Virus record (IMG/VR): IMGVR_UViG_3300021197_001653 | Span: 1 to 64,000 of that record | Source of the DNA: a virus | Strand: one strand, 5' to 3' | DNA: 64,000 nt | Shown: piece after piece, positions 1,659 through 2,507 of the stretch | Layout of the letters: the number at the start of each line of letters is the position of its first letter | How positions within the stretch are numbered: position 1 is the first letter of the stretch | Made by a program: the position numbers and the translations under genes | The notes under the pieces: model-generated | What the model saw: the letters and a program-made list of their open reading frames with translations, nothing else | Told to the model about the DNA's origin: nothing | Database searches by the model: none

Positions 1659-1936
1659 ACTATAAGCTGAGTGTTGACTTATTATATTATCATTTTATAT
1701 TGTTTCCAATATTATCACACACAATGTATTACTACATGTAGATAACATACTCACGATTTAAAGTCATCGCGACTTATTACTATAAAGTATATAAGTTCAT
1801 TTTCATACCAACTTCCTTACGGGATTCAAAGACTGTCATCTTTTAGATAAATATTATTCAATTCCTTCATATCAAGTCTTGCGAACTATTAATGTCATCA
1901 TATTGCAGATGAATAAGAGTATTGTAACTCTATAGT
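1659..1936 (-). ncRNA. putative ~280-nt structured ncRNA, family unknown
   Basis: No ORF of 60 aa or more; minus-strand hairpins AUAUUG-GAAA-CAAUAU, AUGUA-GUAA-UACAU, CC-GUAA-GG, GUUC-GCAA-GAC; terminal stem ACUAUAGAG/CUUAUAGU. Confidence 0.55.
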
Positions 1937-1980
1937 CTAGAAGTGTTTTGCTTTTTTTTTATGCTTAAAAATAAAAATAA

Positions 1981-2507
1981 ATGATTGGATTAGATAGAAG
2001 TCTCTTCTAGTTGTATATCGTACTGTCTTTTGAACAGCCAAAGATACCAACTCCTATCTATTTTCAGGTGTCACCCTTACTAACTTAATTACTATTTCAT
2101 CCCCATATTTCTATGATGATTACTATTGCAATTATAATAACAACTTCGCTTCTGACTGGCAGCTACTATCATTATTTATTAAACTATTTATTGGTAATTT
2201 CTTACCTCAATATCCCTTTCCATTAAGATATATATAACTCTCCTACTCTGATGAGCCATTCCAAATTATACATTGTTTAATACCTTTCAGTGACATGCAT
2301 ATATAAATGCATGGCAATAAGACTACTCATTTAATAATAGTTTCTTATCACTTTATTCCATTACTGGGTTATCCTACGGCTACGAAGGCTAGCCATTTAC
2401 TATTTACTGTTTGTTATTCCTTATACATCAGATTACATGTATCTCTAGCTTCTTTTTGTTTCAGGATTTCCGCTTTCCCCCCTAATACAACGCTCACTGT
2501 TGTATTA
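1981..2507 (-). ncRNA. large ornate ncRNA, ROOL-like
   Basis: ~520 nt, purine-rich on the minus strand with many stems and GNRA loops; ordered blocks GAAAUCCUGAAACAA, GUAAAU-stem-GUAGGAUAACC..GAAUAAAGUG, CUUAUUGCC..CACUGAA and UCAAAAG resemble ROOL as I recall it. Confidence 0.65.

Follow-up and report, generated by a model that had tools for sequence, protein, structure and literature searches.

The window analysed here comprises 64,000 nucleotides (positions 1 to 64,000 of the IMG/VR virus record IMGVR_UViG_3300021197_001653), and the minus strand of its positions 1659-1936 raises the question of what kind of RNA is encoded there. The preliminary description of this stretch had left three options: a novel non-coding RNA without a family, a partner of a larger neighbouring RNA that was called ROOL-like, or the 3′ domain of one RNA of ~850 nt. 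We assign a probability of about 0.8 to the reading that 1659-1936 covers the greater part of the conserved 3′ domain within one phage non-coding RNA of ~845 nt (~1662-2504, minus strand), which belongs to a known class, GOLLD, in a divergent form below the catalogue cut-off. The ends of this RNA are approximate; it could be aligned over its full length with one relative (L165) and 24 other loci. It occupies the gap between the minus-strand ORFs 2505-2711 and 921-1637. No ORF of at least 30 aa was present inside 1659-1936, and a coding reading of the element was rejected on this ground and on that of its G-U covariation.

The GOLLD model of Rfam (RF02032, for which Weinberg et al. 2009 is reportedly the reference) aligned end to end (model positions 1-416) with positions 1664-2058 of the minus strand, with a score of 64.1 bits and an E-value of 5.8e-16 (1e-17 at whole-genome scale). 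The Rfam gathering score of this family is 150 bits, and the score of the window falls below it; at the gathering threshold the whole window gave no match to anything, and GOLLD surfaced only in E-value mode, in which no other family did better than an E-value of 2. This alignment does not support the view of the element as a novel RNA without a family. The match spans the hairpin with the UCAAAAG loop (2058-1993), the A/U-rich "spacer" and all of 1659-1936, and roughly three quarters of the ~98 model pairs are formed in the window by a hand count of the alignment. All ten pairs of the model's 10-bp closing helix are present (1936-1927 with 1779-1788), with a sequence unlike the consensus. The main misfit is a GAAA tetraloop hairpin in place of a larger, 11-nt loop; the second helix is shorter than in the model, and five model pairs are mismatched. 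As a specificity control, RF02032 was run on 100 other phage records (~5 Mb), 50 with relatives of the downstream ORF and 50 with a TerL 56-80% identical to that of this phage, and yielded a single match, a canonical GOLLD of 300 bits. The ROOL model had no match in the window at its gathering score, nor at E ≤ 10 in 1400-2800. Identity with ROOL was therefore rejected, and the idea of a ROOL-like partner is not supported.

Further features of the class were found in the RNA. The motifs shared with GOLLD lie at equivalent places, namely the UCAAAAG loop, AAAGCAAAA at the linker end, the CGCAAG loop, GAUAA-N4-GGAAA and the terminal CUCAGC. The size and layout also agree (~845 nt, against ~850 nt for GOLLD), with two domains and a variable linker able to hold a tRNA, and the order of helices in the 3′ domain is the same: a closing helix, a CGCAAG-capped stem, two three-way junctions and a terminal hairpin. 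GOLLD RNAs usually lie in or beside tRNA arrays, a setting that is frequent, not universal; the RNA in the window has no such neighbourhood.

Relatives were not obtained by overall similarity, as blastn with the RNA as query matched none of 50,697 GenBank phages. When RF02032 was run on the 50 downstream-ORF and 50 TerL relatives, and a clade-specific model (R1, a covariance model of the clade's 158-nt core) on the 50 TerL relatives, the RNA was absent from all of them bar one unrelated canonical GOLLD. Synteny could thus not supply homologues, and motif scans did. A pattern of three GOLLD-consensus motifs retrieved 17 loci from IMG/VR, comprising 13 canonical GOLLDs and the loci L165, L162, L172 and L175. 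The canonical loci scored 250-328 bits and lay beside tRNA arrays, five of the 13 also beside a tmRNA gene; in these five (L174:5315-5713, L168:7805-8203, L176:10738-11137, L169:1899-2296 and L167:8787-9186) the tmRNA gene was located ~0.2-1.2 kb away on the opposite strand. L165 scored 68 bits with RF02032, similar to the window, and could be aligned with it over the whole ~850 nt, including the 5′ domain, with compensatory changes. The other three had no Rfam match: L162 was recognised by R1 as a clade member (118 bits), and the pattern matches in L172 and L175 look like chance.

Two clade-specific patterns, one per domain, matched 37 loci. In total, the IMG/VR motif scans provided ~27 distinct relatives; after duplicate removal, 25 distinct 3′ domains and 24 distinct 5′ domains remained. 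The RNA of the window shared at most 65% of its 3′ domain and at most 58% of its 5′ domain, by identity, with any other member. Ten relatives were run with RF02032, of which six scored 52-89 bits and four had no match at E ≤ 0.01 (no match was given in L179/L184, L196, L212 and L162), which places the whole clade under the Rfam cut-off. Counting the window, seven members matched the model over its full length with E-values of 1e-14 to 1e-26. R1 found clade members strongly, such as L214 (163 bits) and L162, which the Rfam model had missed. The latter (L162:1291-1446, plus strand) lacks the exact 5′ motif and is not matched by the Rfam GOLLD model at E ≤ 0.001, and its membership indicates that the pattern scans understate the breadth of the clade. 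The 5′ motif occurred once in 185,579 prokaryote species genomes, on a 4.6-kb lake MAG contig (L214:638-797, minus; RFNS01000086.1). This contig is binned into an alphaproteobacterial MAG from Lake Lanier and is probably a misbinned phage fragment.

Along the RNA, a 5′ domain of ~450 nt is followed by a hairpin with an A-rich loop and an A/U linker, and then by a multi-branch 3′ domain of ~275 nt with two long-range helices of the pseudoknot type. The 5′ domain (2059-2504, minus; RNAalifold, 24 sequences) is the "ROOL-like RNA" of the preliminary description and contains the 5′ motif of the clade at 2375-2352, in which AGGAUAA and AUAAAGUG flank an ACCA-GUAA-UGGU hairpin. The hairpin that opens the Rfam model (1993-2058, minus; model positions 1-68) is predicted to consist of an outer helix (2058-2051 with 2000-1993) and an inner hairpin (2037-2023), and carries the A-rich loop UCAAAAG at 2033-2027, in which CAAAAG was invariant in 24/24 sequences. 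It is followed by the variable A/U-rich linker (1945-1992, minus; 48 nt), which differs in length and sequence among homologues and ends with the conserved AAAGCAAAA at 1954-1946. In the published GOLLD numbering, the hairpin approximately corresponds to P13/P14 and the linker to J13/15. The A/T spacer of the preliminary description is real, and it is this linker.

The 3′ domain begins with a multi-branch sub-domain (1779-1936, minus) that was delimited by the Rfam alignment, by covariation helices 1-2 and 4-10 and by the specific model R1. Within its closing 10-bp helix, it holds a hairpin (1912-1895), a two-part stem (1894-1868) with the loop CGCAAG (1883-1878), and a three-way junction (1867-1793) with the hairpins 1843-1828 (loop GACA) and 1824-1814 (loop CGUAA). 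The pseudoknot 5′ strand AUACUC (1917-1922, minus) pairs with GAGUAU at 1752-1747, with 97.3% of cells paired and double changes in five of the six pairs. Its 3′ strand directly follows a CGCGAU/AUCGUG hairpin (1771-1752), so that the two together occupy 1747-1771 on the minus strand. The three-way sub-domain (1686-1746, minus) has a closing helix (1746-1741 with 1691-1686) and two hairpins, 1740-1720 with the loop AGUAAU and 1712-1697 with the conserved GAAA tetraloop; its helices 12-14 were 94%, 97% and 82% paired, with 6, 5 and 6 double-change pairs. The last element is a 3′-terminal hairpin (1662-1682, minus) with a conserved ACUCAG in its loop, which is helix 15 (96.7% paired) and equals the last hairpin of the Rfam model.

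The folding energies of these sequences were not usefully better than chance. The z-score of the minimum free energy was -1.18 for the minus strand of 1659-1936 and +0.21 for the plus strand, and -1.82 versus -0.86 for the whole 845-nt RNA. The case for non-randomness therefore rests on covariation and on the covariance-model match. RNAalifold on the 3′ domains returned 58 pairs, 49 of them with compensatory changes. When the Rfam architecture was carried over to window coordinates (15 helices and 74 pairs, including the pseudoknot 1922-1917 with 1752-1747), 90.3% of cells were paired in the 25 homologues, compared with 36-48% when the partners were slid by 1-3 columns. Double changes were present in 63 of the 74 pairs, and the covariation score was 0.615 versus ~0.1; none of 500 shuffles reached the observed values. 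For the 5′ domain, RNAalifold on 24 sequences predicted 86 pairs; double changes occurred in 68 of them, and pairing reached 96.4%. Conserved G-U pairs were frequent in the 3′ domain (e.g., U-G in 23/25 and 25/25 sequences); as these fit the minus strand only, the RNA strand is the minus strand.

Two findings had been named as speaking against the element, a folding energy no better than that of shuffled controls and a lack of conserved, covarying homologues. The first was observed, whereas homologues of this kind do exist, so that the stems are non-random by covariation and covariance model and not by energy. That they are chance products of AT-rich spacer DNA would agree with the weak z-scores and with promoter-like matches at background level, but this explanation is refuted by covariation in excess of all controls, and the covariance-model E-value of 1e-17 with clean negative controls leaves it a vanishingly small probability.

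Most stems that had been picked out from the sequence alone proved to be conserved. Six of them, all located on the minus strand, persist through compensatory changes, with 82-97% paired per helix across 25 distinct homologues: AUAUUG-GAAA-CAAUAU (1712-1697), AUGUA-GUAA-UACAU (1737-1724), CC-GUAA-GG (1823-1815), GUUC-GCAA-GAC (1886-1876), UCAUC/GAUGA (1912-1908 with 1899-1895) and ACUC/GAGU (1920-1917 with 1752-1749). CGCGAU/AUCGUG is present in the window (1771-1766 with 1757-1752), but was only 64% paired in MAFFT columns. Folded alone, the segment had this hairpin as its best fold in 15 of 25 sequences, and on this basis and by inspection of the alignment the shortfall looks like an alignment offset, not a missing helix. 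The proposed pairing of the two ends did not stand: 1930-1936 can pair with 1659-1665 in the window, but only 29.9% of cells were paired across the homologues, equal to shuffled and slid controls, and the conserved partner of 1927-1936 is 1779-1788.

The 3′ domain was found at a fixed distance from the 5′ motif in 30 of 30 informative loci, i.e., those with at least ~780 nt downstream of that motif. The two parts are also joined by an 8-bp helix, whose 5′ strand lies at 2003-2010 and whose 3′ strand lies at 1937-1944 (both minus), directly 5′ of the 1659-1936 feature. Each of its positions paired in 20-24 of 24 sequences, with many pair types (e.g., C-G 7, G-C 13, U-A 2), compared with only 2-5 of 24 for the flanking positions. 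This linker-closing helix is new. It closes the variable linker and crosses the P13 helix (2058-2051 with 2000-1993), and must therefore be a pseudoknot or else, if the RNA oligomerises, a connection from one chain to another. As it joins the halves either way, the 5′ and 3′ parts constitute one folding unit. The fixed distance and this helix bear out the option of a 3′ domain of one ~850-nt RNA.

A scan for sigma-70 promoters and terminators gave matches at background level, with no such signal in the spacer, and the sole terminator-like match on the RNA strand was an internal hairpin of the RNA. Two independent RNAs of ~520 and ~280 nt, separately transcribed or processed and acting as partners, are very unlikely in view of this lack of signals, of the co-occurrence at fixed distance in every informative locus and of the covarying helix that bridges the spacer, which the Rfam 3′-domain model itself also crosses (2058-1664). 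What could be said for two molecules is that a processing site could lie in the variable A/U-rich spacer, that the ends at 1662 and 2504 are approximate, and that a GOLLD 3′ domain alone can fold and oligomerise (PMC12990946).

In several other members of the clade the linker is longer than the 48 nt of the window. The most divergent member, L210, carries a tRNA within it (Asn, anticodon ATT; ARAGORN) at L210:10519-10594 (minus), inside the RNA at L210:10160-11188, and unlike most of the clade it sits in an array of 11 tRNAs. In L165 (L165:250-420, minus) the linker has an insert of ~70 nt with a T-arm-like GGGTTCGACTCCC at L165:335-347, which corresponds to the tRNA T-arm consensus; after it comes ...CACUGCCCA, which may be the 3′ strand of an acceptor with CCA. 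ARAGORN called no tRNA on this insert, which may be a remnant or else a tRNA-like domain in permuted form.

The record is a viral genome of 104,434 bp with 27% G+C that was judged complete (100%, CheckV), so that the RNA is phage-borne, as GOLLD is. Its TerL was 38-42% identical, over nearly the full length, to those of crAss-like phages of Bacteroides, Flavobacterium and Cellulophaga, and the RNA sits in a leftward block of small ORFs. A literature search found no paper linking GOLLD with crAss-like phages. The 64-kb window contained no tRNA; the only one in the genome, a tRNA-Met (CAT) at G000:C1:99928-100002 (minus), lies on the same strand as the RNA, and on a circular genome it would be located ~6 kb downstream of it. 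Across the clade, 19 of 29 loci had no tRNA in their flanks. A sequence UAAUUUG (2535-2545, minus) was noticed ~35 nt upstream of the first RNA helix, within the end of ORF 2505-2711. We take it to be a near-match, one base short, to the Bacteroidota -7 promoter element TAnnTTTG, and it may serve as the start signal of the RNA. Antisense to the 5′ domain there is an ATG ORF of 74 aa (2307-2531, plus), which is probably spurious given the covariation of the RNA there.

As in GOLLD, the occurrence of the RNA among related phages is sporadic. RF02032 and R1 detected none in the 50 closest TerL relatives, nine of which were at least 90% complete. The TerL of four other carriers was only 25-28% identical to that of this phage and a fifth had no TerL match; none of the window's flanking proteins was shared with the flanks of other carriers. 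The ORF downstream of the RNA (921-1637, minus; 238 aa, phrog_15656, unknown function) lies outside it, and only one of the 50 phage records with homologues of this ORF carries any GOLLD. That the RNA ends ~25 nt before the start of this ORF, on the same strand and with no terminator between, would be expected of a cis-acting leader or regulator. Such a role is nevertheless extremely improbable, since the ORF homologues in 49 other phage records come without a GOLLD match and neither this ORF nor any other flanking one has a homologue in the other carriers; to our knowledge, a two-domain structure of 845 nt is also far beyond any known leader. The absence from the 50 closest relatives and the unshared flanking proteins instead point to a mobile accessory module of uncultured phages.

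The relationship of the clade to canonical GOLLD is remote. A sequence-only nhmmer profile of the clade found no canonical GOLLD at E ≤ 10, so that no primary-sequence similarity is detectable by a profile HMM, and R1 found none with default filters. With filters off, its best two matches fell inside canonical 3′ domains and were marginal (E-values of 0.076 and 0.3). The clade motifs were not found in a truncated and gapped copy of the published GOLLD alignment, which says little. The 5′ motif is AGGAUAAAGUG in canonical GOLLD and AGGAUAA-hairpin-AUAAAGUG in the clade, at a similar distance from the 3′ end; an extra hairpin thus splits the shared motif. Differences from GOLLD further include the score of 64 bits (cut-off 150) compared with 250-328 bits for canonical phage copies, the lack of a nearby tRNA array or tmRNA, and the crAss-like host phage. 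With ROOL the RNA shares a large, ornate, phage-borne structure with many GNRA-type loops and often a similar genomic setting, and ROOL also forms cages, which are octameric (PMC12286853). It differs from ROOL in having separate domains joined by a linker, as GOLLD does.

These distances allow for large phage RNAs that form a family of their own, related to GOLLD as a sister group or similar to it by convergence, which would have the same 3′ layout and may assemble differently or not at all. The clade members tested are below the Rfam cut-off or without a match, canonical GOLLD is not recognised by nhmmer and only marginally by the reciprocal covariance-model search, and the loci differ in their surroundings, where tRNAs are few or absent. 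We nevertheless consider a separate family improbable. Seven members, counting the window, match the full-length model at E-values of 1e-14 to 1e-26, the helix order is the same with conserved loop and junction motifs at the same places, the 5′ motif is common to both, and a tRNA is embedded in the linker of one member. GOLLD is moreover already known with variable 5′ domains (PMC12286853).

GOLLD RNAs assemble without protein into cages of 12 or 14 copies, as determined by cryo-EM for a 14-mer from env-38 and a 12-mer from S. agalactiae; rings are built from the 3′ domains and caps from the 5′ domains, with the linker directed inwards (PMC12286853, PMC12990946). The 3′ domain alone can form decamers (PMC12990946). 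Contacts in the cage are made by loops of three kinds, one A-rich (L14), others GNRA-type or self-complementary (PMC12286853, PMC12990946). The RNA of the window still has the UCAAAAG loop, which is A-rich, a GAAA tetraloop that is conserved and sits on a covarying stem, and, in the first three-way junction, the paired hairpins. By homology with GOLLD, it is somewhat more likely than not that the RNA of the window forms a cage as well. In this proposal, the RNA 1662-2504 would fold without protein and its copies would assemble into a closed homo-oligomeric cage, with the 3′ domains as equatorial rings, the 5′ domains as caps and the linker pointing inwards, and the cage would be made during lytic growth of the crAss-like phage. 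One contact may be altered: the loop GACA (1837-1834) of the window lacks a GC dinucleotide that is present in most clade members, and by an approximate numbering (L21a) it is this dinucleotide that mediates a loop-loop self-contact in the env-38 GOLLD structure.

A coherent clade below the Rfam cut-off, without tRNA-array context and present in a crAss-like phage, is new. It is possible, though doubtful as a joint claim, that it represents a distinct, uncatalogued clade of GOLLD-type cage RNAs that has lost its link to tRNA arrays, has altered contact loops and has a stoichiometry or geometry unlike the solved 12- and 14-mers. On this account, the clade would comprise at least 27 distinct sequences, almost exclusively from uncultured environmental phages of ~100-120 kb and including one crAss-like phage, and the GAAA tetraloop hairpin, the GACA in place of a GC-containing loop and the extra 5′ hairpin would lead to a different assembly; the linker-closing helix could then join separate molecules instead of forming a pseudoknot.

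The result joins the "ROOL-like RNA" and the "second RNA" of the preliminary description into one known kind of object. GOLLD is among the very few natural RNAs known to build cages without protein, and a divergent clade provides independent covariation data that can separate contacts essential for the cage from those specific to a lineage. The Rfam cut-off misses a sizeable part of the GOLLD class in environmental phages. That the RNA is decoupled from tRNA arrays argues against a function that needs neighbouring tRNA genes, and its presence in a crAss-like phage, together with its absence from the 50 nearest relatives, indicates an exchangeable accessory module.
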